A stretch of DNA of 64,000 nt from NCBI GenBank assembly GCA_030629005.1, contig DAOVPV010000006.1, forward strand, positions 3,472 through 67,471, read 5' to 3'. The first letter of the stretch is position 1, and every line of letters begins with the position of its first letter. The DNA comes from a bacterium (lineage in GTDB: Bacteria > Babelota > Babeliae > Babelales > UASB340). The translations under genes and the position numbers were made by a program. Shown one piece after another: positions 2,733 through 50,563 of the stretch. The notes under the pieces were generated by a model that made no database searches, had not been told where the DNA came from, and saw only the letters and a program-made list of their open reading frames with translations.

Positions 2733-2808
2733 TGGTGGAGGTAAGCGGAGTCGAACCGCTGGCCTTCCGCTTGCAAAGCGGACGCTCTACCAACTGAGCT
2801 ATACCCCC
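2733..2808 (-). tRNA. tRNA-Ala (anticodon UGC), CCA encoded
   Basis: The reverse complement GGGGGTATAGCTCAGTTGGTAGAGCGTCCGCTTTGCAAGCGGAAGGCCAGCGGTTCGACTCCGCTTACCTCCACCA folds as a cloverleaf. The G3:U70 Ala identity pair is present and the anticodon loop is TTTGCAA. Confidence 0.95.
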
Positions 2809-2833
2809 GAAAATTTCAAGTGGCCGTGCCTTT

Positions 2834-2876
2834 TGCCCTACTTCGCTTTAAAAAGCTACGAAGGGCATACTTCGCG
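2834..2876 (-). repeat. GC-rich tRNA-linked repeat module R2
   Basis: TGCCCTACTTCGCTTTAAAAAGCTACGAAGGGCATACTTCGCG has a close copy at 13833-13871. It contains two TACTTCGC boxes. Confidence 0.7.
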
Positions 2877-2920
2877 TCCTTTCTATCAATATCAGGCTTA
2901 AAACTATCTCTTTTAAAAGA

Positions 2921-3015
2921 CTGGCTTGCCATACGACCTGTCCTACGAAGCCACGTAGGGCGTAGTAGGAAGCCTTTACGCCGTCGCTAAAGCTATGGCG
3001 CACATGGGCGAAGTA
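2921..3015 (-). repeat. GC-rich tRNA-trailer repeat module R1 plus CCA-adjacent box
   Basis: CTGGCTTGCCATACGACCTGTCCTACGAAGCCACGTAGGGCGTAGTAGGAAGCCTT is about 90% identical to 14129-14185. The segment ends in GGCGAAGTA directly against the tRNA-Ile 3' end. Confidence 0.75.
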
Positions 3016-3092
3016 TGGTGGGCCTAAGTAGACTCGAACTACTGACCTCTCCGTTATCAGCGGAGTGCTCTAGCCAACTGAGCTATAGGCCC
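3016..3092 (-). tRNA. tRNA-Ile (anticodon GAU), CCA encoded
   Basis: The reverse complement GGGCCTATAGCTCAGTTGGCTAGAGCACTCCGCTGATAACGGAGAGGTCAGTAGTTCGAGTCTACTTAGGCCCACCA folds as a cloverleaf. The anticodon loop is CTGATAA. Confidence 0.95.
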
Positions 3093-21825: not shown

Positions 21826-22596
21826 TTACTTCGATTTTTCAGCCAAATCTAAATAAAGGTCTAACGATTTATCTACTACATTAAAAATAATTTGATAATA
21901 ATCTGAATAATCACCAGACATTTCTGCTTTAGAAATAGACCTTATATAAGCAAGCTTATCCTCAACTTTTATTATTGCAGGAGGAAATCCAGACTGCATT
22001 AAAATCAAATCCATAAGTAGTCTTGCGCTTCGACCATTTCCATCAACAAAAGGGTGGATCATAACCAATTTTATGTGAGCATCAGCTGCAATTTTAACAG
22101 GATGTTCTTTTGTACAATGCAACCATTTAATAAAATCATCCATCAATTCTGGTACTTTTATAGGCTCTGGTAGCACAGAATCGGAACCCGCTATTTTTAC
22201 TGCTATTTTTCGCAATTTACCTGCATTTTTATCATCTATTTGTTTTAAAATTAAATAGTGAAAATTTAAAAAATCTTTTAAATTTATATCTTGAATTTTT
22301 TTACCTACAAATTTTTTTATATAATCAATAGCAAAAGCTAGATTTTTAGCTTCCAAATGCTCACGAATACTCTTGCCTCCAATAGTAATTCCTTTTTCAA
22401 CAACAAGTGTAGTTTCTTGTTTCGTTAAAGTATTACCCTCAATGGCGTTCGAATTATAAGTTGATTCTATCTTAAACCAATCATCCAAATTCTTTACAAG
22501 CTCTTTTGATAAAGGCCTAAGACTATCTAATTTATTTTTTTTATTATCAATAATTTCTAATAGTTTACCCATGGTATTACCTCGTTTATTCGTCAC
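21826..22596 (-). CDS. Fic-domain protein (AMPylase family)
   Basis: The Fic motif HPFVDGNGRSARLL is present. An N-terminal SNAIEG matches the intramolecular inhibitory motif (S/T)xxxE(G/N). Confidence 0.9.
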   Translation of the reverse strand: MTNKRGNTMGKLLEIIDNKKNKLDSLRPLSKELVKNLDDWFKIESTYNSNAIEGNTLTKQETTLVVEKGITIGGKSIREHLEAKNLAFAIDYIKKFVGKKIQDINLKDFLNFHYLILKQIDDKNAGKLRKIAVKIAGSDSVLPEPIKVPELMDDFIKWLHCTKEHPVKIAADAHIKLVMIHPFVDGNGRSARLLMDLILMQSGFPPAIIKVEDKLAYIRSISKAEMSGDYSDYYQIIFNVVDKSLDLYLDLAEKSK

Positions 22597-22721: not shown

Positions 22722-23909
22722 TTAAACGCCAATACCACGTTTTTTAATACTCTTTTGCGAAAAAAATAATCTTTTATTTTGCTCAAAAGCTTCCCGCTGT
22801 AATAAACTATAAAAAAATTCACGGTCTGGACCCTTTACAACTGCAGCTTCATGCGCATAAGCCAAAGTTACAGGATAACCTAAACCCTTTTTTATTTGGT
22901 CTAAAGCAACCGCGGACAAAAAATCTAACATATCTTTATCTTGCGCAATATAGGCGAAAGTTTCTATACGCACAACTTCTACATCTGCATTTAAATAAAA
23001 AAAACATGGCTTTAGATGTTCTGGATAACTCTTTGTAATTTTTGAATTACTAAAAAAAATATTACTACGTTCATTTATATTTAAATAAGTTTTTGCTATT
23101 CGTGTATCTATTAAATTATCTACAGCCTTACATGGAAAATCACTATAAACTCTGTGACAAGAAATACATTCTGCAAAATCAAACCGACATAAACCTAGCT
23201 TTATTAAATTTACAAGCTCTTTGCTTTTAGGAAAACTTATAAAACCAGCTATTATTTTTTTATTCTCATAAAATTTTTGCAAAATATTTAAGTATGAATT
23301 CAAGAACAAATCTTTAATTTCTTCTGGTTTAGATTCTAAAAACCAAAAAATTACCGTACCATCTACAAACGCAATATCTATATTTTCTTCTAAAGTTAAT
23401 TTTAGCAAATTTAATAATTCAAGTTCCTCTCTCTTTAAATCTACAATATCATTAGAAAAATTTATCTTATTATTTTGATCTAAAAAATCTTGAATTATAA
23501 AAAGAGTTGGCTCTGAATTTATTTTTACAGAACTATTTTCGTCGGAAGAAACATTTAATCTTGAAGAAACATTTAATATTTTTGAATATTTTATCTGACA
23601 ACTACCAATATTTATTAAAAAACAACCTGAATTAGAAATATTTCGGTCTGGATATATCTGAGAACCATCTACAGATAGTATAGAATAATCATTTTTTTGA
23701 ATTGGAATTTTAAATTTATCAGACAAATTACCAGCCCACGATGGAACCAAAAAACTTGCGTTAGAATTTTCTACTTTAGCTTTAAATTTAGAATCTACAG
23801 AAATACTTTGCCATTTTTCCTGAGCTATACTTGACTGCTCTGTAAAATTATTAAAAAGCTTATCTGCATTTTTTTTTAGTTGTAAAAAAAGACTATTTTT
23901 ATTTAACAT
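22722..23909 (-). CDS. NurA-domain nuclease-like protein
   Basis: ILSVDGSQIYPD, FVDGTVIFW and the C-terminal GYPVTLAYAHEAAVV resemble the NurA nuclease family pattern from memory. No HerA-like partner is adjacent. Confidence 0.45.
   Translation of the reverse strand: MLNKNSLFLQLKKNADKLFNNFTEQSSIAQEKWQSISVDSKFKAKVENSNASFLVPSWAGNLSDKFKIPIQKNDYSILSVDGSQIYPDRNISNSGCFLINIGSCQIKYSKILNVSSRLNVSSDENSSVKINSEPTLFIIQDFLDQNNKINFSNDIVDLKREELELLNLLKLTLEENIDIAFVDGTVIFWFLESKPEEIKDLFLNSYLNILQKFYENKKIIAGFISFPKSKELVNLIKLGLCRFDFAECISCHRVYSDFPCKAVDNLIDTRIAKTYLNINERSNIFFSNSKITKSYPEHLKPCFFYLNADVEVVRIETFAYIAQDKDMLDFLSAVALDQIKKGLGYPVTLAYAHEAAVVKGPDREFFYSLLQREAFEQNKRLFFSQKSIKKRGIGV
23542..23580 (+). repeat. 21-nt hairpin-core repeat, copies 7 and 8 (tandem, 18-nt period)
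   Basis: The sequence is TCGGAAGAAACATTTAATCTT followed by GAAGAAACATTTAATATT. In the - strand gene it is read as ILNVSS-RLNVSS. Confidence 0.85.
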
Positions 23910-25643: not shown

Positions 25644-26264
25644 TTATTCTGTAAAATTTTTACTTCTAAAAATAAAAAACTGAAGACAAAAGATAAAATA
25701 AACAACAACTCCCCTTAAACTATTTAAATAAGTTTGTTGTGGTAACCCTAAACAAAAAGCGGCAATAACTTCTATAAAATCACCCATTCCCATAATGGTC
25801 AGCAATCCAAAACTCAATCCTTGCACAGAGCTACTTTTGTAATTTTTAAAAATTTGAGGAATTTGATGAACAGCCCAAATTGTTGCCATAAGCCAACCTA
25901 AAAGATTTCCAATAAACATAGGATTTTTCACAGCAAAGGGGGTTAATATTAAAAAAAACAAAATGAAACTAATTAAAAAAAATAATTTTAATTTTACTTC
26001 TTTCTTATCTGAATAATAAAACCTCTGCAAAATTAAAATTAAAACTAAAATAAAGCCTGAAGGTATAAAAATTTTATGGGCCAATGTTAAATCTAAGCAA
26101 AAAACATAAAAAATATATGCCATATATGCATAAAAATAACCAATAAACAAAAAGTCACTTAAACCCTTAGTCGATTTAAGCTTAAAATTTAATCTAATTT
26201 GAGGTAAAATACCTAAAAAAAATATCGTTTGAGATATCCAAGGAAACAACAATTTTAAATTCAT
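25644..26264 (-). CDS. PQ-loop repeat membrane protein (two PQ motifs)
   Basis: LGILPQIRLNFKLKSTKGLS and HQIPQIFKNYKSSSVQGLS are two PQ-loop motifs. The protein has about 7 predicted TM helices. Confidence 0.75.
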   Translation of the reverse strand: MNLKLLFPWISQTIFFLGILPQIRLNFKLKSTKGLSDFLFIGYFYAYMAYIFYVFCLDLTLAHKIFIPSGFILVLILILQRFYYSDKKEVKLKLFFLISFILFFLILTPFAVKNPMFIGNLLGWLMATIWAVHQIPQIFKNYKSSSVQGLSFGLLTIMGMGDFIEVIAAFCLGLPQQTYLNSLRGVVVYFIFCLQFFIFRSKNFTE

Positions 26265-29934: not shown

Positions 29935-30600
29935 CTAAAACATTGCACAATTACTACATGGGTTATCCCAAAAACTTACTTCTTTTTTATCTAATTCTAA
30001 AGAACTAAATTCTTTTAATTTCATAAGATATATAATAAACCAAATTAAACTTCTACAATCAAATAATTTTGCATAAAATAAAACATCGTTCTTAGCTTCA
30101 TCCTTGATGCTTGTCAACCAATTTGCTAGTTGAACATAACGGGTACCTAATTCATCTTTATCAAATATTGCATCTAAATTTAATTCGGCACCTCTTTCTA
30201 AAAGAAAAACCAAAACATCAAAATTAAAGTTTTTATTCATAATACAATGAAATAATGGAGTATGCCCAAAAATATTTGTTAAATTTATTTTAGCACCATT
30301 TTCAAATAAAAAAGAAACCAACCCATAAGAAGAGCTGGGAGATCTTAAAGCAGAAAAAATAGGCGTTTCCCCCCAGTCATCTATAGAGTTTAAATTTTGT
30401 AAAAATAAATCTTTTTGACAAGATAAACTTTTGGGTTCATCTAGATGGTAAATATCGTTTATAAAATCAACGGCTGGAAGAGATAAACAAAAGTAATGTA
30501 ATTGATTAGGCTTACCATCTAAACTTTCTTGCATAGCAATAAGATTAGAATTTAAAAATAGATTAATAATTAAAAAAAACAAATTAAAAAATAAACGCAT
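29935..30600 (-). CDS. secreted ankyrin-repeat protein
   Basis: An N-terminal signal-like segment is followed by ANK repeats (GETPIFSALRS...LFENGAKINLTNIFGHTPLFHCI...LLERGAELNL). Confidence 0.8.
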   Translation of the reverse strand: MRLFFNLFFLIINLFLNSNLIAMQESLDGKPNQLHYFCLSLPAVDFINDIYHLDEPKSLSCQKDLFLQNLNSIDDWGETPIFSALRSPSSSYGLVSFLFENGAKINLTNIFGHTPLFHCIMNKNFNFDVLVFLLERGAELNLDAIFDKDELGTRYVQLANWLTSIKDEAKNDVLFYAKLFDCRSLIWFIIYLMKLKEFSSLELDKKEVSFWDNPCSNCAMF

Positions 30601-42997: not shown

Positions 42998-44275
42998 TTA
43001 AAAATTAAACGCTAATTGACCACCAACGGTATACGTCTTAATAACTCGTTTTCCAGACACCGGCAACTTTGTAAATAAACTTATTTGCGGCATCATTGCA
43101 TAATTACTTTTCTCTTTAAAGAAATCAAAATTTAACTGAAATATAAAATCTTGGGTATTCCATTCTTGTAAGCGCTCTGCCGAATTAATAATACTATAAT
43201 CAAACTTATTTGACTCTGCCGTAAACTTATCTGAATCATGTTTTAAATATTGATAAGCTATTTTGACTGTGACAAATTTTCCAAATTTCTTTTGCATAAA
43301 CAAATTAAATTTCCAAGAAATTCCTTGACTCAAAGTTGCTTTACCCTTATGCAATAATAAAAAATCAGTTTGATTGATATCTGTTTTTAACCTATAAGTA
43401 TCTGAAGTATCAAACACAAACAACAGGTCAAACTCAAGGCCAGCTTTAAACTCTCTAATAAAATGCAAATCTATTGCTGCACCAACAGGAACACCCCAAG
43501 CTCCATTATTACCCATAGGTAAGTCTAAAATCTTGTCTGAATTAATTCTATGTCCAGTAGGCGCGCTCAAGCCCAATCTAAAATTTAACCTAACATTTTT
43601 TAAATGATCTTTAATTTGTTTATAGTCATTATACCACCAAATTTGTGTGACAATGTCTGATATACCAAATCTTTCAAATCCATCAAGACTTAATCCATCA
43701 CCCAAAGTGTAGATGTTATTAAAAAAAGAATCGGTCAAGTTTTGATGCACATCCAAATCTGCAACCAAAACACTTTTTGTAAGATCTCGCCAAACAACAT
43801 TCTTAATTTCCATCTGACTAAACGGTACATGAACATATAAATCAAAATTACCCGGTATCGTTTTTATTGGTAATTTATACTTTGCAAGCAAATTTAAATT
43901 TGTCATCTCAAACTCACCATCAAGTTCAAAGTGACCACGGACACCATCATCTGTTGCAGGACTGTATGCAGGTAAAAATAAAGTCGCTTTTTCATAAATA
44001 GCACTGCCAGGATCCGCGCCCAGTAACATCGCTAAACTGGATTCAGTTGCATTATACAATCTTAGTAAACCAGATTTATTTTCCCACAAATTCCAACTAT
44101 CTTTTGTACTACCATGTTCTATATTTGCGCCAAACAAAAACTTTTTAGGTTCACAGTCTGGCAATCTCCAGTTTATATTATATGGTGTATAAAAATTTGT
44201 TGGTGCATATGCAAATACCAAATTAAAACTGCTTAGCCCAAGAAGTGCGGTAAAAATAAATTTAAAATTTTTCAT
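42998..44275 (-). CDS. putative outer-membrane beta-barrel protein
   Basis: The signal peptide ends ...NLVFA-YA. The sequence has an alternating amphipathic pattern and ends ...GGQLAFNF, with a terminal Phe as in OMPs. Confidence 0.65.
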   Translation of the reverse strand: MKNFKFIFTALLGLSSFNLVFAYAPTNFYTPYNINWRLPDCEPKKFLFGANIEHGSTKDSWNLWENKSGLLRLYNATESSLAMLLGADPGSAIYEKATLFLPAYSPATDDGVRGHFELDGEFEMTNLNLLAKYKLPIKTIPGNFDLYVHVPFSQMEIKNVVWRDLTKSVLVADLDVHQNLTDSFFNNIYTLGDGLSLDGFERFGISDIVTQIWWYNDYKQIKDHLKNVRLNFRLGLSAPTGHRINSDKILDLPMGNNGAWGVPVGAAIDLHFIREFKAGLEFDLLFVFDTSDTYRLKTDINQTDFLLLHKGKATLSQGISWKFNLFMQKKFGKFVTVKIAYQYLKHDSDKFTAESNKFDYSIINSAERLQEWNTQDFIFQLNFDFFKEKSNYAMMPQISLFTKLPVSGKRVIKTYTVGGQLAFNF

Positions 44276-44291
44276 TATAACTATCCTTTAT

Positions 44292-47213
44292 TTACTCACT
44301 AACTCTAATTCCCCAATCTCCAGGAATTACCCAACCTCCAGATGCTGTATTTAATGCCATTAATCCAATATTATGTGCACTACTTTCTAAATCTAAATTA
44401 ATATTACTTTCTGCTGTCCTTATAGAACTTTGATCAGAAATCATTCTTATTGATCGTAAAAATTGCGTTTTATCAAAATGTTTGGAAAGCATACTAAAAC
44501 CTAAAGCTCCATCTGTTACAAAATTAGATCTAAGCTCACCAATAGAATAAAAATAATCTGTTCCTGAATTTTCTTTTATTGCAGTAATTAAACCATTTTG
44601 AACATTAAATCTATACACTGTAGCCATATTTAACGAAAAATCTGTAGCCAACACATATAAATTACCATTTGTTGTGTAACCACCCTTTTGTACGTCCACA
44701 AAGCTTAAATGTGAAACCGGCTTGGAAAGAGCCGTACCTGAATTTAAATTAACCCTTGTCCAAACAGGAGTTTTATTTCCTGGAGCATCAATTATAATAT
44801 TAGAATAAAATAAACCATGAGTTGTCGCCACTAATAAACGAGTATCTCCGGCACCACCAGCATCTCTATGAAAAACAATCATATCTAATAAATAACCAGG
44901 AGGTGGTGTTATATCATCTTCCGCTAAAACAGCAGAAACCGGGTCATCAAATTTATTAGCAGCCATAACAAATCTATAAATTTTATCCAAAGTCATTACA
45001 TTACAAAAACCACCACTAATAAATATTTTTCTTATATTTGAAAAATCGCCGATTTCTTTAAATGTCCAACCTGCAACTGTAGCTAAATCAACCACCGCCT
45101 GATTTACTCGACCATCCCAACCGTTACCGTCGGCCTGACGTAATACAGCTAAACCATTATAACCACCAACAAAGATCCAACCTTTATTTTCTTCTTGAAT
45201 TCTAGAAACATCTGCGCAACAAATTGGACCAATGTCACTTAAAGCTTGACCACTCAAAATAAATGTATTCTGGCCACCGCCCGTTTTTTCGAATAAATTT
45301 GTTGGAGTGAATGCATTATTTCCATCAGCAGCACCACTTTGAATTAATGCTATTTTTTTATATCCAAGAGCAGCCATAAAGGACATCCTATCTGCCGCAG
45401 CGGTACGAGCAATACTTGGAGTATATTCATCAAAATTAAACATCTGGTGCACACCTGCATTAACTTGTATAAATTCATCTCTTAAAATTTCAGTTAATCC
45501 ATTACCCATCAAACCACTCAAAGCTTTACCTTTTCCCCATTGCGTAACTTTTGCTGTATTTATATTTGCACCATCATCAGTTAAATACCAATAATTTGCT
45601 CCGGAAATATCAAAACCAAAACCATAAACCTTATCAATATTTCCCATTACACGTTGCCACGGAGACCAAATTCTAATTTTGCCATTAGAACTAAAAATTG
45701 CAGTACTTTTAAATATTCCCGACTCATTTACAGCAATATTTCGCGTACCTTGTAATGCAACAAAAACAGTATCATTTACAATGTAAATATCAGAAACAAT
45801 ACCATCGTCAGGAATTGGCAAATCACCACCACCAACAATAGCAGCAGCATCTGTAGATAAAGTCATATCTGCATTAGAAGCCACAACGGCATCATAATTA
45901 TTTTTCTTTACAACTTTACCAACATTTTCAACAGGTGTCACAGTTGTACCATCACTCAATTTTGTGCCAAGAATTGGTAATGCATAAACTCTATTCTTTT
46001 TATCAGTCGCATCAAGCGAACTATCACTATTTACTATCAAATAATTTTTATTAGTACTTGTAACCATAGTTTTCAACTTAAAAGTATCACAATGAGCATC
46101 TGCGGCAGCACCCGCAGCCTTATAAAAAGCAAATATCTTTGTTGCATCATCAAGGCCTGGGTCAAAAATATTCTGCGATAAAATAACAACTGGCTCAATT
46201 TTTAATGCACCGGCATCGTCAAACCTACCAACTAAAATAGATATACCACCACCATCCAAAGTATTATTATCACGCTCGACACTTTTAAGACCAATAAATA
46301 ATCTTTTCAAAGTTGAGTCCCAATACATATCACCAAGATCAACAGTATTTTTTGCATTTTGAGTTATTGCAAAAAGAACACCTTGAGTTAAATCAAATTT
46401 AAAAGCCAAATTACCGGCCTTGTCACCGGTTTGAGCATTTATCGGCTTTAATTTGCTTTCTTCTTGAATTAAAACAGCAAATCCAGCATTGCCATCAACA
46501 AAATTATTTGCATTAGATTTTACTGCTGCAATAATTTTGTCTAAACTTGCAGCAAGACCAATAACACCAGCAGTTGTTTTAAGAGTTGCATCTGAATCAT
46601 TAATTTCTATAATATTAGTTTTTACAGAACTACCATCTGCCAAATCATCTATCAAACAAACACATTTACCTGCGCCAATAGGATTACCACCAAAACCACC
46701 GTCTACAGTAGTTGCATCACTTAAAGTCAAAATAGGATTCCTGACCTGCAACGTCAATTTATCAACACGCTTGTTATAAATAGGATTATTTTTTTTAACA
46801 GCTTTTTTATTTTCCTTGATGCCATTAAGATATGCAGTTATTGCTGCTAGTGGTAAAAATTCCAAACTATTAAGATCGGGTGAAGAACCTAAGTTTAATT
46901 TTATTCTTACAAGAGCTGAAGTTCCAGGTGTAGCCGAACTAGCTCCTAAATAAAAATAGTCAGCCGCAGCAAAAGCATTTGCAACAAAATCTACGGTACC
47001 AACAGCGGCTAAATATCTCGTAGCTTTTTCGTCACCATCTTGAACATTAATGTTTGTTAAAAATTTAACATTTTGAAATTCTTCCGGAGTTTCTATTTTT
47101 GAATCTTCGTTTTCTGAAAAAACAAAACTTGGAACTTTAGTAGAGATAGAAGATTTTATAAATATTGGAAAAAAAAGATATAGAACTAGTATTGAAAATA
47201 TTCTAAACTTCAT
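44292..47213 (-). CDS. large secreted/surface protein (973 aa), G/A/T/N/D-rich, possible beta-propeller
   Basis: It has a signal peptide and no TM helix. Motifs of the type GxxYxxT/GLFxS recur. No family recognised. Confidence 0.75.
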   Translation of the reverse strand: MKFRIFSILVLYLFFPIFIKSSISTKVPSFVFSENEDSKIETPEEFQNVKFLTNINVQDGDEKATRYLAAVGTVDFVANAFAAADYFYLGASSATPGTSALVRIKLNLGSSPDLNSLEFLPLAAITAYLNGIKENKKAVKKNNPIYNKRVDKLTLQVRNPILTLSDATTVDGGFGGNPIGAGKCVCLIDDLADGSSVKTNIIEINDSDATLKTTAGVIGLAASLDKIIAAVKSNANNFVDGNAGFAVLIQEESKLKPINAQTGDKAGNLAFKFDLTQGVLFAITQNAKNTVDLGDMYWDSTLKRLFIGLKSVERDNNTLDGGGISILVGRFDDAGALKIEPVVILSQNIFDPGLDDATKIFAFYKAAGAAADAHCDTFKLKTMVTSTNKNYLIVNSDSSLDATDKKNRVYALPILGTKLSDGTTVTPVENVGKVVKKNNYDAVVASNADMTLSTDAAAIVGGGDLPIPDDGIVSDIYIVNDTVFVALQGTRNIAVNESGIFKSTAIFSSNGKIRIWSPWQRVMGNIDKVYGFGFDISGANYWYLTDDGANINTAKVTQWGKGKALSGLMGNGLTEILRDEFIQVNAGVHQMFNFDEYTPSIARTAAADRMSFMAALGYKKIALIQSGAADGNNAFTPTNLFEKTGGGQNTFILSGQALSDIGPICCADVSRIQEENKGWIFVGGYNGLAVLRQADGNGWDGRVNQAVVDLATVAGWTFKEIGDFSNIRKIFISGGFCNVMTLDKIYRFVMAANKFDDPVSAVLAEDDITPPPGYLLDMIVFHRDAGGAGDTRLLVATTHGLFYSNIIIDAPGNKTPVWTRVNLNSGTALSKPVSHLSFVDVQKGGYTTNGNLYVLATDFSLNMATVYRFNVQNGLITAIKENSGTDYFYSIGELRSNFVTDGALGFSMLSKHFDKTQFLRSIRMISDQSSIRTAESNINLDLESSAHNIGLMALNTASGGWVIPGDWGIRVSE

Positions 47214-47363: not shown

Positions 47364-48314
47364 TTAAGGTTGAAAAACTTCTTTTTGAGCAAACAAATCA
47401 GATCTCTCCAAAATTTTATCTAATAGATCTAAAACCTCTTGAATTGTTGGACGATATTCAGGCCAATGCCCCCAACATTTGCTTATAATATTATTAATTG
47501 AAGCAAACTCAGGGTCAAGATAAGGACGAGCACCACGCAATATAGAATTCGTAAAAACATCCGGATCATCAATAAAATTTGCAGTAGTTTCATCATAAAA
47601 AATATAATGAATCAAATGACCTAATGCATAAATATCATCTGAAAAAGCCACTGTATATTCTGCCTTTTCCTGCCAAGCAATTATTTTTTCGGGTGGAAAA
47701 AAAACAAGAGTACCACAAATTCCTTCAGACCGCTCTCTAATATCACATGACATAGATAAATCAATTATTTTAGGAATATTACCATCAAACATAACAATAT
47801 TTTCGGGCTTCAAATCGCAATGAACAATATTGTTTTCATGCAAATATTTAACACCTAAACAAATTTTCTTTGTCATATCTAAGCGTTCTTTAAAGGACAA
47901 TATACCTTTATTTTGCGCTAAAAAATCAACTAAATCACATAAACCTTGAGAAGTTACTATTACAAAACTTTTAGGATCATATCCAATTAAATCAACAATA
48001 AATTCACATTCTGAAAACCGATGTAAAATATCTACTTCTTGAAAGAAAAATTGTGAATTTCTTTTTACTATTTCCTTCGATTTAGAAGGAATGCTCCTAT
48101 AAACCAAAAAAACTACTGGCTGCCCCTCCAATAAGCCCTTATAAACAATCTTTTCACTCCCACCAATAAAACGTTCATATTCCTTTGCAATTGTAGCTCT
48201 ATCTAAAACTGTAATAGAAAGCCCAGCATTCCTTTTTGTGGGCTGCATAGAAAAAAGATTTATAATAAAAAATAAAAATATTAAAAATATTTTAAAATTT
48301 TTAAATTTCAACAA
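47364..48314 (-). CDS. eukaryotic-like Ser/Thr protein kinase with N-terminal signal/anchor, WNK-like lysine placement
   Basis: The catalytic loop HCDLKPEN is intact, with DLS in place of DFG and PPE in place of APE. The G-loop reads IGGSEKIVYKG. The position expected for the beta3 VAIK lysine reads VVFL. Confidence 0.85.
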   Translation of the reverse strand: MLKFKNFKIFLIFLFFIINLFSMQPTKRNAGLSITVLDRATIAKEYERFIGGSEKIVYKGLLEGQPVVFLVYRSIPSKSKEIVKRNSQFFFQEVDILHRFSECEFIVDLIGYDPKSFVIVTSQGLCDLVDFLAQNKGILSFKERLDMTKKICLGVKYLHENNIVHCDLKPENIVMFDGNIPKIIDLSMSCDIRERSEGICGTLVFFPPEKIIAWQEKAEYTVAFSDDIYALGHLIHYIFYDETTANFIDDPDVFTNSILRGARPYLDPEFASINNIISKCWGHWPEYRPTIQEVLDLLDKILERSDLFAQKEVFQP

Positions 48315-48329
48315 AACAGATTGCCCCTA

Positions 48330-49892
48330 TTATTTAGATAAATAGTATATTTTTATACCAAAAAATTTTGTAGTCTTATAAAGCAAATAGCCACAAAACC
48401 CAGCCAAGGGAATAATAATAATCCAAAAACCATAACTATTCTTAAAAAATTCGTAATAACTTGTAAATGTTATCAAATGAAAAAATAATTTGTACAAAGC
48501 CATATAAATCGTAGACACAACAGTTAGTTGTAAAATATATTTAAATAAAAAACTGAAATATCTAGCATGATAAAATTTAAAATCATATTTTTTACTAAGA
48601 AATATAAAATATAATATTGTTAACACAACTCCAGAAATAGCGGTTGATGCGGCAATACCAAAAGCTCCCCAATAAATCATACCAACAATATTTGCAACAA
48701 TGTTTAATAACGATGAAATCACTAACGCAATAGTAGGGGTTACAGTATTATTCATAGCGTAAAACACATTTACCAATACTTTATTTAGGCAATAAAAAAC
48801 AAGTGCCGTCGAATATATAATCAAAAGATTTTTTGCAATCAAAGCATTTTCTAACGTTGTAACTTTTCCAAACATTAAAATTGTAAAAATTTCTTTTGAT
48901 ACAAATATTAAAAACATCATTGCCGGCAAGACAAGCCATGTTATTAATTTAGTGCTTTCAAATATTTGAAACTTTAATCTTTTTGGAGCATAAGCAGCAT
49001 ACCTAGAAAAATGTGGCAAAATAATTGTCGCAAATCCAACTGCAAAAATACCGATGGGCATATTAACAAACCGACCAGCATAATGCATCATAGATACATT
49101 TCCAGCTTTTAAATAAGAAGCTATTGCCGTATCTGCAAATAAATTTATCTCGATAATACTTACACCCAAAAGACTGGGTAAAAATTTTGTTAATATCTGT
49201 AATAAAGACTTATTCGTTTCTCTAATCGGCTTTCTAAACCTAAAATTATAATAAAAAAAGGCAATTAAGTGCATTATAAAAGAAATCAAACCTGATAATA
49301 AAACACCATAACAAACTGTAGTTAGAGATAGTCCCCAAAACTTTGCTCCTAGTAAAAATACAATCAAAACAATGTTCATCACAACAGGACCAGCTGCAGG
49401 AATTGCAACATGATTAATCGAATTCAGCGCACCAGATAAAAGAGCCGTAGAAGAATAAAAGAACAACATTGGAAAAACTATACGCAAAAAAGGAATCGCA
49501 TAACTCAACTGTTCTTCAGTAAACCCGGGAGCTGCAAAATAAAAAACATACCGAGGAAAAATTACAACTAACAAAACCAATAAAAAAACAAATCCCTCAA
49601 AAAATATAAATGTGGATGTAAGTAAACTACTTGCAAATTTAAAATCCTTTGTTCGCATTTTTTTCACAAAAACGGGCACAAACGCCGCAGACAAAGCTCC
49701 TTCTGCAAAAATACGTCTCAAAAAATTGGGAATCTTGAGTGCAATTAAAAAAGCATCTGAAACCGCTCCAACACCCAAAACACGAGCCAGCAGAGTCTCT
49801 CTAATTATACCAAACACACGACTCAAAAAAGTAATACTGCCAAACTGAACCGCTTTTTTTAAAATAGATTTCCTCGTTAAATTTAAACTCAC
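48330..49892 (-). CDS. murJ: lipid II flippase MurJ
   Basis: SRVFGIIRETLLARVLGVGAVSDAF...AEGALSAAFVPVF and about 14 TM helices match MurJ. Confidence 0.9.
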   Translation of the reverse strand: MSLNLTRKSILKKAVQFGSITFLSRVFGIIRETLLARVLGVGAVSDAFLIALKIPNFLRRIFAEGALSAAFVPVFVKKMRTKDFKFASSLLTSTFIFFEGFVFLLVLLVVIFPRYVFYFAAPGFTEEQLSYAIPFLRIVFPMLFFYSSTALLSGALNSINHVAIPAAGPVVMNIVLIVFLLGAKFWGLSLTTVCYGVLLSGLISFIMHLIAFFYYNFRFRKPIRETNKSLLQILTKFLPSLLGVSIIEINLFADTAIASYLKAGNVSMMHYAGRFVNMPIGIFAVGFATIILPHFSRYAAYAPKRLKFQIFESTKLITWLVLPAMMFLIFVSKEIFTILMFGKVTTLENALIAKNLLIIYSTALVFYCLNKVLVNVFYAMNNTVTPTIALVISSLLNIVANIVGMIYWGAFGIAASTAISGVVLTILYFIFLSKKYDFKFYHARYFSFLFKYILQLTVVSTIYMALYKLFFHLITFTSYYEFFKNSYGFWIIIIPLAGFCGYLLYKTTKFFGIKIYYLSK

Positions 49893-50563
49893 TTTAAAAT
49901 TCCACCTTCTAATTTTAAAACATTATCCATTCGTTTATATACTGCACCATCGTGAGAACACATAATCAAGCCCATATTCCAATCTTTAACACAATTTAAT
50001 AATAGATCTGTTATTACACTCGCATTTTGCTCATCCAAGTCTCCCGTTGGCTCATCTGCAAGCAAAAAAGATGGTTCATTAAAAATTGCACGTAAAATAG
50101 AAACCCTTTGTTGCTCCCCACCAGAAAGTTGTGTTGGATAATTATTTCCTTTCTCAATAAGGCCAACTTTATTTAACAACATTTTTGCTTTTTGTATAGA
50201 TTCCTCTTTCCTTTTTCCAGAAATTAAACCTGGTAAAATTATATTTTCTAAAACTGATAATTCTTTTATTAAATAGTGAAATTGAAAAACAAAACCTAAA
50301 TTTAAACTTAAAAGTTCTTCTTTTTGTTTCTGTTTTAATTTAAAAATATCTTTATCATCGAACAAAACCGCGCCACTTGTCGGTTCATCCAGCCCACCCA
50401 ACAAATGGATTAAAGTAGACTTTCCAGAACCTGAAGCCCCTGTTATGGCATAAGAAGAGCCGCGCTTAAACTCAAATGCCACTCCTTTTACAACTTTTAA
50501 TTCTTTATCTCCGTCCCAAAAGCTTTTAAATAAACTTTTTGCAACCAAAAATTCAATCTTCAT
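49889..50563 (-). CDS. ABC transporter ATP-binding protein (LolD/FtsE/MacB-type)
   Basis: GASGSGKSTL, LSGGEQQRVSILRA and DEPTGDLD are present. It overlaps murJ by 4 nt. Confidence 0.85.
   Translation of the reverse strand: MKIEFLVAKSLFKSFWDGDKELKVVKGVAFEFKRGSSYAITGASGSGKSTLIHLLGGLDEPTSGAVLFDDKDIFKLKQKQKEELLSLNLGFVFQFHYLIKELSVLENIILPGLISGKRKEESIQKAKMLLNKVGLIEKGNNYPTQLSGGEQQRVSILRAIFNEPSFLLADEPTGDLDEQNASVITDLLLNCVKDWNMGLIMCSHDGAVYKRMDNVLKLEGGILK

Follow-up and report, generated by a model that had tools for sequence, protein, structure and literature searches.

A family of putative exported eukaryote-type kinases in Dependentiae-like bacteria with a glycine-loop lysine and no lysine in strand beta3

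Must a protein kinase that lacks the lysine of strand beta3, the VAIK lysine, be a dead enzyme? The WNK kinases are the textbook warning that it need not be. The question is raised by a gene on the reverse strand of a 64,000-nucleotide stretch of DNA, hereafter the window, from a bacterium of the Babelota (GenBank assembly GCA_030629005.1, contig DAOVPV010000006.1, positions 3,472 to 67,471), whose predicted product carries a lysine, K55, in its glycine loop and none in strand beta3. A preliminary description, made from the DNA alone, had read the product as a secreted eukaryotic-like kinase with a WNK-type active site. On the analysis reported here, the protein may be an exported, active Ser/Thr kinase of an undescribed family, in which K55 from strand beta2 would replace the beta3 lysine in convergence with WNK and POMK, a reading that draws on alignments and a structure model and that we hold to be about evenly balanced between right and wrong.

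That the product is a eukaryotic-like kinase is well borne out. Pfam Pkinase (PF00069) matches it with 92.3 bits against a curated cutoff of 31.7 (E = 4e-26), and AlphaFold2, run on a 41-sequence alignment, returns a confident kinase fold with a mean predicted local distance difference test score (pLDDT) of 88.1 and a predicted template modelling score of 0.84, in which beta1 spans residues 47-51, beta2 55-62, beta3 65-72 and helix alphaC 80-99. The best Foldseek matches of this model are IRAK4, Fyn, KIT, FGFR2 and Eph kinases (E ~1e-15), and a Foldseek comparison with viral structures returned only generic giant-virus kinases of ~20% identity. Because the Pfam match begins only at residue 80, the N-lobe has to be regarded as very divergent. 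No further Pfam match, and hence no second domain, was found in the 316 residues, and the protein ends ~16 residues past the kinase domain. The motifs quoted in the preliminary description, namely the glycine loop I50-G-G-S-E-K55, V67-V-F-L70, HCDLKPEN and DLS, are all present as quoted (Table 1), and the catalytic loop is of the Ser/Thr (DLKxxN), non-RD type.

The lysine of the glycine loop had been said to stand at the third Gly of the kinase consensus GxGxxG, and every alignment places it there: K55 falls on G469 of BRAF, on S537 of TTK and on K233 of WNK1, and in a MAFFT alignment with canonical kinases it likewise occupies the third-Gly column. For WNK1, whose comparator sequence is identical to PDB 5W7T chain A, this placement is agreed upon by hhalign, BLASTP and hmmsearch. 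The position corresponds to G55 of PKA, which is where WNK kinases have moved their catalytic lysine, and both WNK and POMK are known to carry the ATP-positioning lysine on beta2 (PMC1821047; PMC13519141). Among ~550 kinase domains taken from the best database hits, a glycine-loop lysine without a beta3 lysine occurs only in the family to which the present protein belongs.

To find members of this family, phmmer was run exhaustively against 1.84 billion representatives; it returned mostly generic or multi-domain kinases, together with single-domain relatives, 300-390 aa in length, in which the trait recurs (P0001, P0045, P0053, P0083, P0085, P0110 and P0135). One more, P0156, came to light in a profile search and is annotated as hypothetical in candidate division TM6 bacterium GW2011_GWF2_28_16; by profile score members lie at 312-366 bits, with the next protein at 123 bits. 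The resulting family alignment holds 11 sequences of 25-39% identity; a twelfth relative, P0251, was found separately and is the sole newcomer among the three proteins returned by a profile search restricted to the N-lobe. A scan of the genome collection for the pattern HxDxKxxN gave, among the matches listed, only ordinary bacterial kinases (22-34% identity) and no family members. As judged from their sequences, the relatives make up a small family of eukaryote-type Ser/Thr kinases that had not been described before and has so far been met in TM6/Dependentiae-like bacteria. Neither a bacterial WNK-like kinase nor kinases of Dependentiae were found described in a literature search of incomplete coverage. 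Separately from the family, the strongest full-length scores to the query belong to giant proteins of 1300-6100 aa with 4-10 kinase domains each (P0007, P0008, P0009, P0039 and others), none of which has a relocated lysine.

Invariant in the 11-sequence alignment are G52, E54, K55, F90, E93, I106, L128, K149, H165, D167, K169, N172, K182, I184, D185, P208, D227, I228, G232, C280, R288 and P289, so that all catalytic residues except the beta3 lysine are kept in the family; the claim that the catalytic loop and the Mg-binding Asp are intact thus extends from the query to its relatives, and R288 is likewise intact in the query. The glycine loop reads G-x-E-K throughout, K55 is the only invariant basic residue of the N-lobe, and beta3 holds no conserved basic residue. 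In the loop of P0251, GKDK, the Gly and the Lys are kept, with Asp in place of E54. The same alignment shows that the DFG glycine has been replaced by Ser and that the first glycine of the loop has been lost, and these losses bear on the main rival explanation, an exported pseudokinase in which phosphotransfer ended with the departure of the beta3 lysine, leaving the fold to act as scaffold, ATP sensor or decoy. By sequence definition a pseudokinase lacks at least one of three hallmark residues (beta3 Lys, HRD Asp, DFG Asp), as this protein does, and bacterial families without the beta3 Lys have usually been catalogued as such (PMC12599244). However, several motifs typically degrade in pseudokinases, whereas here D167, K169, N172, D185, E93, D227 and R288 remain invariant at 25-39% identity, and an invariant lysine stands exactly at the position of the compensating lysine of WNK and POMK. 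A pseudokinase is thus considered unlikely, and an active enzyme is preferred.

The relation to WNK kinases proper was examined at the level of the profile, the N-lobe and the tree. Against solved structures, the family profile scores highest with TTK/Mps1 (153 bits, E = 8e-44), followed by JAK, BRAF (137 bits) and phosphorylase kinase (127 bits), while WNK1 reaches 103 bits and PKA 52 bits. The N-lobe alone (residues 39-132) matched no kinase in the PDB, and the WNK-like string of the glycine loop is for this reason too short to show homology. A rough neighbour-joining tree, without bootstrap values, places all 12 family sequences in one group, to which neither WNK1 nor any of the seven canonical kinases included belongs. 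Since WNK1 scores low, the N-lobe is without a match and the tree separates WNK1, the apparent relocation of the lysine most plausibly arose by convergence with WNK and POMK rather than by descent from WNK. Homology to WNK through horizontal transfer was rejected on the profile scores (103 bits for WNK1 against 153 for TTK and 137 for BRAF). The label 'WNK-type' therefore probably holds for the active site, as an analogy, but not for the family. Clustering with ordinary Hanks-type bacterial kinases was not found either: no NCBIfam model comes near its cutoff, with PknB_PASTA_kin at 46 bits against 450 and T4SS_LegK1 at 44.7 bits against 550.

What, then, occupies the vacated slot in strand beta3? 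The claim that the VAIK lysine is missing stands, as residues 60-72 contain no Lys or Arg. A lysine of the stretch IPSKSKE (74-80) was tried as the beta3 lysine and rejected, for this stretch lies in the predicted beta3-alphaC loop and is neither alignable nor conserved in homologs. Which residue fills the slot differs by alignment, being F69 with BRAF, L70 in MAFFT, V71 in the family and TTK alignments, Y72 in hhalign with WNK1 and R73 in BLASTP with WNK1. In the AlphaFold2 model, as read by DSSP, beta2 and beta3 are joined by a two-residue turn (E63-G64), K55 pairs with Y72 and V57 with L70, and the model of P0251 again pairs the glycine-loop Lys with the Tyr (beta2 49-56, beta3 60-67). K55 shares its face of beta2 with the hydrophobic position K+2 (V57); in the family, columns 72, 70 and 68 are conserved as hydrophobic or aromatic, Y72 being near-invariant, and columns 71 and 69 vary, Ser and Lys included. 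The spacing from K55 to Y72, +17, matches that of PKA (G55 to K72) and of WNK1 (K233 to C250). Because DSSP register, column periodicity and spacing agree, Y72 is favoured as the probable occupant and V71 appears the lesser candidate, the slot being predicted as non-basic either way. The equation of V-V-F-L with VAIK in the preliminary description was probably off by one or two residues.

The second part of the proposal concerns export. The N-terminal hydrophobic segment, earlier described as signal-like, recurs across the full-length members, all 11 of which open with a lysine-rich n-region (MLKFKNFK in the query; net charge 0 to +4) and continue with a hydrophobic stretch of 15-26 uncharged residues. 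In the AlphaFold2 model of the query, residues 7-20 form a helix of low confidence and residues 22-29 a disordered linker, and a candidate signal peptidase cleavage site, L-F-S↓M-Q, can be read from the sequence. Most members carry [S/G/P]-M-[E/Q] directly after the leader (FS↓MQ, FG↓ME, LG↓ME, SS↓ME, FP↓ME), which could be either a conserved signal-peptidase context or an internal start giving a cytoplasmic isoform. A signal peptidase gene is encoded in the window, and the 973-aa neighbour of the kinase has a leader akin to its own. The leader thus has the appearance of a Sec signal peptide or a signal anchor. Dependentiae have been reported to encode many exported signal-peptide proteins, regarded as putative effectors (PMC6561590; PMC4776705). 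A kinase domain that follows an export signal has no way of acting in the bacterial cytoplasm, and we infer action in the host cell as the most economical reading.

The gene itself begins, as read directly from the sequence, with a TTG codon 13 nt past the stop codon of murJ, and a Shine-Dalgarno-like AGGGG lies 9 nt 5' of it; the gene of the 973-aa neighbour has a comparable AAAGGG motif ahead of its ATG. Among family members, upstream frames stay open for only a few codons past the called starts. The distance of 13 nt makes co-transcription of the kinase gene with murJ likely. Locus L001, the home of the ortholog P0001, has the same gene order, Lon-LolD-MurJ-kinase-970 aa protein-425 aa protein-GT4-BamA, and the identities between the two loci are 79% for Lon, 75% for MurJ, 69% for LolD, 63% for GT4 and 51% for BamA, against 39% for the kinase. 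With 39% compared with 51-79% for most of its syntenic neighbours, the kinase is, as far as these identities tell, among the fastest-evolving genes of the block, and its catalytic residues are nonetheless kept. An assembly or frameshift artefact was rejected, because 3 contigs carry the identical protein and homologs keep the motif; an additional, 97%-identical fragment (P0010) has the same motif.

The mechanism proposed on these grounds is as follows. A Sec signal peptide would take the protein out of the bacterial cytoplasm, and the kinase would probably work in a place supplied with host ATP, its likeliest targets being proteins of the host. Its catalytic machinery (HxD167, K169, N172, D185 and alphaC E93) is intact except for the beta3 lysine, and K55, which in the model faces the former lysine slot, now Y72 or possibly V71, from the opposite strand of the hairpin, would supply the positive charge that anchors the ATP phosphates. 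The family's own signature is the Glu-Lys pair at the tip of the loop (G-x-E-K). With less assurance, and as a tentative extension, this may be the third independent relocation of a lysine from beta3 to beta2 in an active kinase of the eukaryotic protein kinase (ePK) type and the first in bacteria, distinguished by the Glu-Lys loop pair and by a slot Tyr that may hold the alphaC Glu, with double-lysine paralogs as intermediates if the TTK register applies, and with a class of secreted effectors in Dependentiae.

The points that weigh against this proposal concern the beta3 register, the paralogs, the leader and the genomic setting. When TTK, the best-scoring relative of solved structure, is aligned without gaps, V71 falls on K553 and Y72 on Y554, and the reach of K55 to the ATP phosphates we infer only from the strand register of the model. 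The paralogs add to this difficulty. The TM6 genome GW2011_GWF2_28_16 holds at least three family genes, two of them in tandem (L083 8905..11176, LBNX01000002.1), where the pair, as in L086, adjoins ybeY, and the third, P0251 (SZ59_C0002G0189), elsewhere on the same contig, so that the family has evidently expanded by duplication; T2SS-F/G, pseudopilin and MlaD-like genes lie a few kb upstream of the tandem pair in L083 and L086. The first gene of the tandem (L083:8905-9984) and its ortholog L086:1-990 read SSGTEK...YVLIKYK, and P0251 reads SFGKDK...CALVKYNK. Under the TTK register, all of these would keep the canonical Lys in addition to the glycine-loop Lys, and the role of K55 might then be other than replacing the beta3 lysine. 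Should the residue ahead of the Tyr be the slot (compare A-I-K-Y of TTK), the double-lysine paralogs would be evolutionary intermediates; should it be the Tyr itself, their beta3 Lys would, by the model, face outward. A further alternative places the ATP-anchoring base elsewhere, at R73 or at K77/K79 of the beta3-alphaC loop, and assigns K55 to a contact with the substrate or the gamma-phosphate. It can draw on BLASTP against WNK1, which sets R73 opposite C250, on the loop after beta3, which is often basic in many members, and on the paralogs that may hold both lysines; yet the residue after the Tyr is not conserved (R, N, H, K, K, L, F and F across members), the loop lysines cannot be aligned between members, and K55 has no invariant basic rival in the N-lobe. 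Such a base outside the glycine loop is very improbable, and K55 is retained as the predicted anchor.

As to the leader, the Met directly behind the hydrophobic segment, M23, is a possible alternative start, and it is from M23 that fragment P0010 was called. On this basis the kinase could be cytoplasmic, translated from the internal ATG, with the hydrophobic N-terminus an artefact of an extended open reading frame (ORF), and a Met stands at this place in most members. However, the frame with its lysine-rich n-region and hydrophobic core is open in 11/11 full-length members at ~30% identity, in AT-rich, stop-prone DNA, and AGGGG precedes the TTG with no such motif ahead of the M23 ATG; a cytoplasmic kinase has the slightest prospect of all the explanations considered. 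The 18-residue hydrophobic segment could also be a membrane anchor, and the lolD-murJ operon context suggests an envelope rather than a host role. An active kinase might accordingly stay tethered to the inner membrane through its N-terminal helix, its catalytic domain facing the periplasm or exposed at the cell surface, and use host-derived ATP on targets of the envelope or the interface without being delivered into the host. Eighteen uncharged hydrophobic residues are long for a cleaved signal peptide, and the gene follows murJ within a conserved block that includes lolD, the gene for the large exported protein, GT4 and bamA. This context is not kept in other members, however, the neighbours of whose genes are ybeY or iPGM, and the fast divergence of the kinase fits a protein of the host interface. 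Moreover, no periplasmic protein kinase is known. A membrane-anchored kinase seems, on balance, rather improbable, and delivery of an active kinase to the host is preferred.

Should the proposal be true, relocation of the catalytic lysine would be a recurrent evolutionary route rather than a singularity, and the family would offer a natural variant series (Tyr, Val, Cys or Ser in the slot, and possibly the double-lysine paralogs) in which relocation can be studied. It would also counsel caution toward automated kinome surveys that call such bacterial proteins pseudokinases, and it would provide a candidate effector class for Dependentiae, protist parasites that form a widespread phylum and whose proteins for manipulating the host are almost wholly uncharacterised.

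Table 1. Positions of the kinase gene, its motifs and other features of the window.
Feature	Position	Strand	Remarks
Kinase ORF	47364..48314	-	complete, 316 aa; N-terminal signal-like segment, then a single eukaryote-type kinase domain
Residues 1-22, MLKFKNFKIFLIFLFFIINLFS	48249..48314	-	n-region net charge +3, then 18 uncharged hydrophobic residues
S22-M23 site	48246..48251	-	like sites in P0110, P0135, P0156, P0083 and L083:8905-9984
Kinase domain	47415..48176	-	~residues 47-300: beta1 through subdomain XI Arg288 and the next helix
Glycine loop and start of beta2, I50-G-G-S-E-K-I-V57	48144..48167	-	from multiple alignments; full string I50-G-G-S-E-K55-I-V-Y-K-G60
K55 codon (AAG)	48150..48152	-	glycine loop
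E54 codon	48153..48155	-	glycine loop
Strand beta3, Q65-P-V-V-F-L-V-Y72	48099..48122	-	no Lys/Arg; Y72 codon 48099..48101
Glu93, alphaC glutamate	48036..48038	-	PKA E91; invariant in family
Catalytic loop, H165-C-D167-L-K169-P-E-N172	47799..47822	-	H165, D167, K169 and N172 invariant
D185-L-S187, DFG equivalent	47754..47762	-	Mg-binding Asp invariant
AGGGG, Shine-Dalgarno-like motif	48324..48328	-	ahead of the TTG start; read from sequence
Upstream genes of the likely operon	48330..50563	-	lolD-like ABC ATPase 49889..50563 and murJ 48330..49892
973-aa protein with signal peptide	44292..47213	-	directly downstream of kinase; 55% identical in L001, order kept
425-aa protein	42998..44275	-	downstream of kinase and 973-aa gene; 60% identical in L001, order kept
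Antisense ORF, 96 aa	46489..46779	+	in 973-aa gene
Antisense ORF, 78 aa	49612..49848	+	in murJ
cPLA2/lysophospholipase-type protein, 1235 aa	53193..56900	-	PF01735 PLA2_B, E = 4.5e-25; 59%-identical homolog in L001
Ankyrin-repeat protein	29935..30600	-	
PQ-loop protein	25644..26264	-	
NurA-domain protein	22722..23909	-	
Fic-domain protein	21826..22596	-	
tRNA-Ile(GAT) and tRNA-Ala(TGC), adjacent	2733..3092	-	protein-coding ORFs on both sides

The window, of ~30% GC and part of a 96-kb metagenomic scaffold, encodes diderm envelope functions (BamA, MurJ, LolD), PilB, PilN, Lon and several aminoacyl-tRNA synthetases, and its set of eukaryote-like and host-interaction genes fits an intracellular lifestyle. 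Taken with the named TM6 homolog, these traits make Dependentiae (Candidatus Babelota) the probable home of the window. The PLA2_B protein is, by its domain match, a candidate host-membrane effector. Neither Pfam nor NCBIfam gave a match for the 973-aa or the 425-aa protein downstream of the kinase. The antisense ORFs in the 973-aa gene and in murJ owe their seeming conservation in L001 to overlap with conserved genes and are in all likelihood spurious, and a scan of the window for promoters and terminators gave counts no higher than in shuffled controls. The adjacent tRNA-Ile and tRNA-Ala are the classic pair of the 16S-23S spacer; Rfam found no rRNA in the window, and the pair may mark a split rRNA operon or a relic spacer.

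Both the relocation of the lysine (WNK, POMK and Arg55 of CAK-chloro) and the secretion of microbial kinases are already known, and the present family is best understood beside these systems. WNK1 (PDB 5W7T, 6CN9) likewise has the beta2 Lys at the third Gly and no beta3 Lys, and it too keeps the alphaC Glu, the catalytic loop and the Mg-binding Asp; both proteins show the local motif G-S-x-K-x-V-Y-K-G-L, and WNK has D-L-x instead of DFG, as do the query and P0001. In contrast, the slot holds Cys in WNK and Tyr or Val in the query, the loop lysine is preceded by Phe in WNK (F-K) and by Glu in the query (E-K), and the query, a bacterial protein with a signal-peptide-like leader, is without the autoinhibitory and CCT-like accessory domains of WNK. 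To our knowledge, POMK alone is accepted beside WNK as a kinase whose lysine migrated to beta2, and it enters the secretory pathway. Like WNK, POMK (SgK196) is a eukaryotic kinase whose ATP-positioning lysine has moved to beta2 (PMC13519141), but it is a sugar kinase with strongly divergent motifs, the Lys of which pairs with the Asp of DLD, whereas the query family keeps the canonical HxDxKxxN, the DFG Asp and the alphaC Glu; the comparison is by description only. TTK/Mps1 has the same spacing from glycine loop to beta3 (+16 to Lys, +17 to Tyr), and its I-K-Y motif resembles L-I-K-Y and L-V-K-Y of the query's paralogs. It differs in having the beta3 Lys (K553) and Ser at the third Gly, and in being a large cell-cycle protein of eukaryotes that has no signal peptide; the sequence similarity is low, and orthology is unsupported.

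Among bacteria, lysine loss has been described in the DLHK pseudokinases and in the CAK-chloro small-molecule kinases (R55), in which the beta3 Lys is gone and basic residues of beta2 or the glycine loop have been proposed as ATP binders (PMC12599244; PMC1821047). DLHK proteins, however, are cytoplasmic helicase fusions in which the DFG motif is missing, whereas in the query family the Lys alone has moved, and CAK-chloro enzymes are not protein kinases of the ePK type. In PknB/Stk1-like Hanks kinases a cytoplasmic kinase domain stands at the N-terminus, followed by a transmembrane segment and a sensor, an order that is reversed in the query with its N-terminal hydrophobic segment. The ROP and WNG kinases of Toxoplasma carry an N-terminal signal peptide, and WNG has an atypical glycine loop, a likeness by description only. 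With these and with LegK1-4/7 of Legionella, the present protein would share the delivery of a eukaryote-type kinase from an intracellular microbe onto its host, a delivery that here is inferred; the LegK proteins differ from it in having the canonical Lys and in being substrates of type IV secretion.

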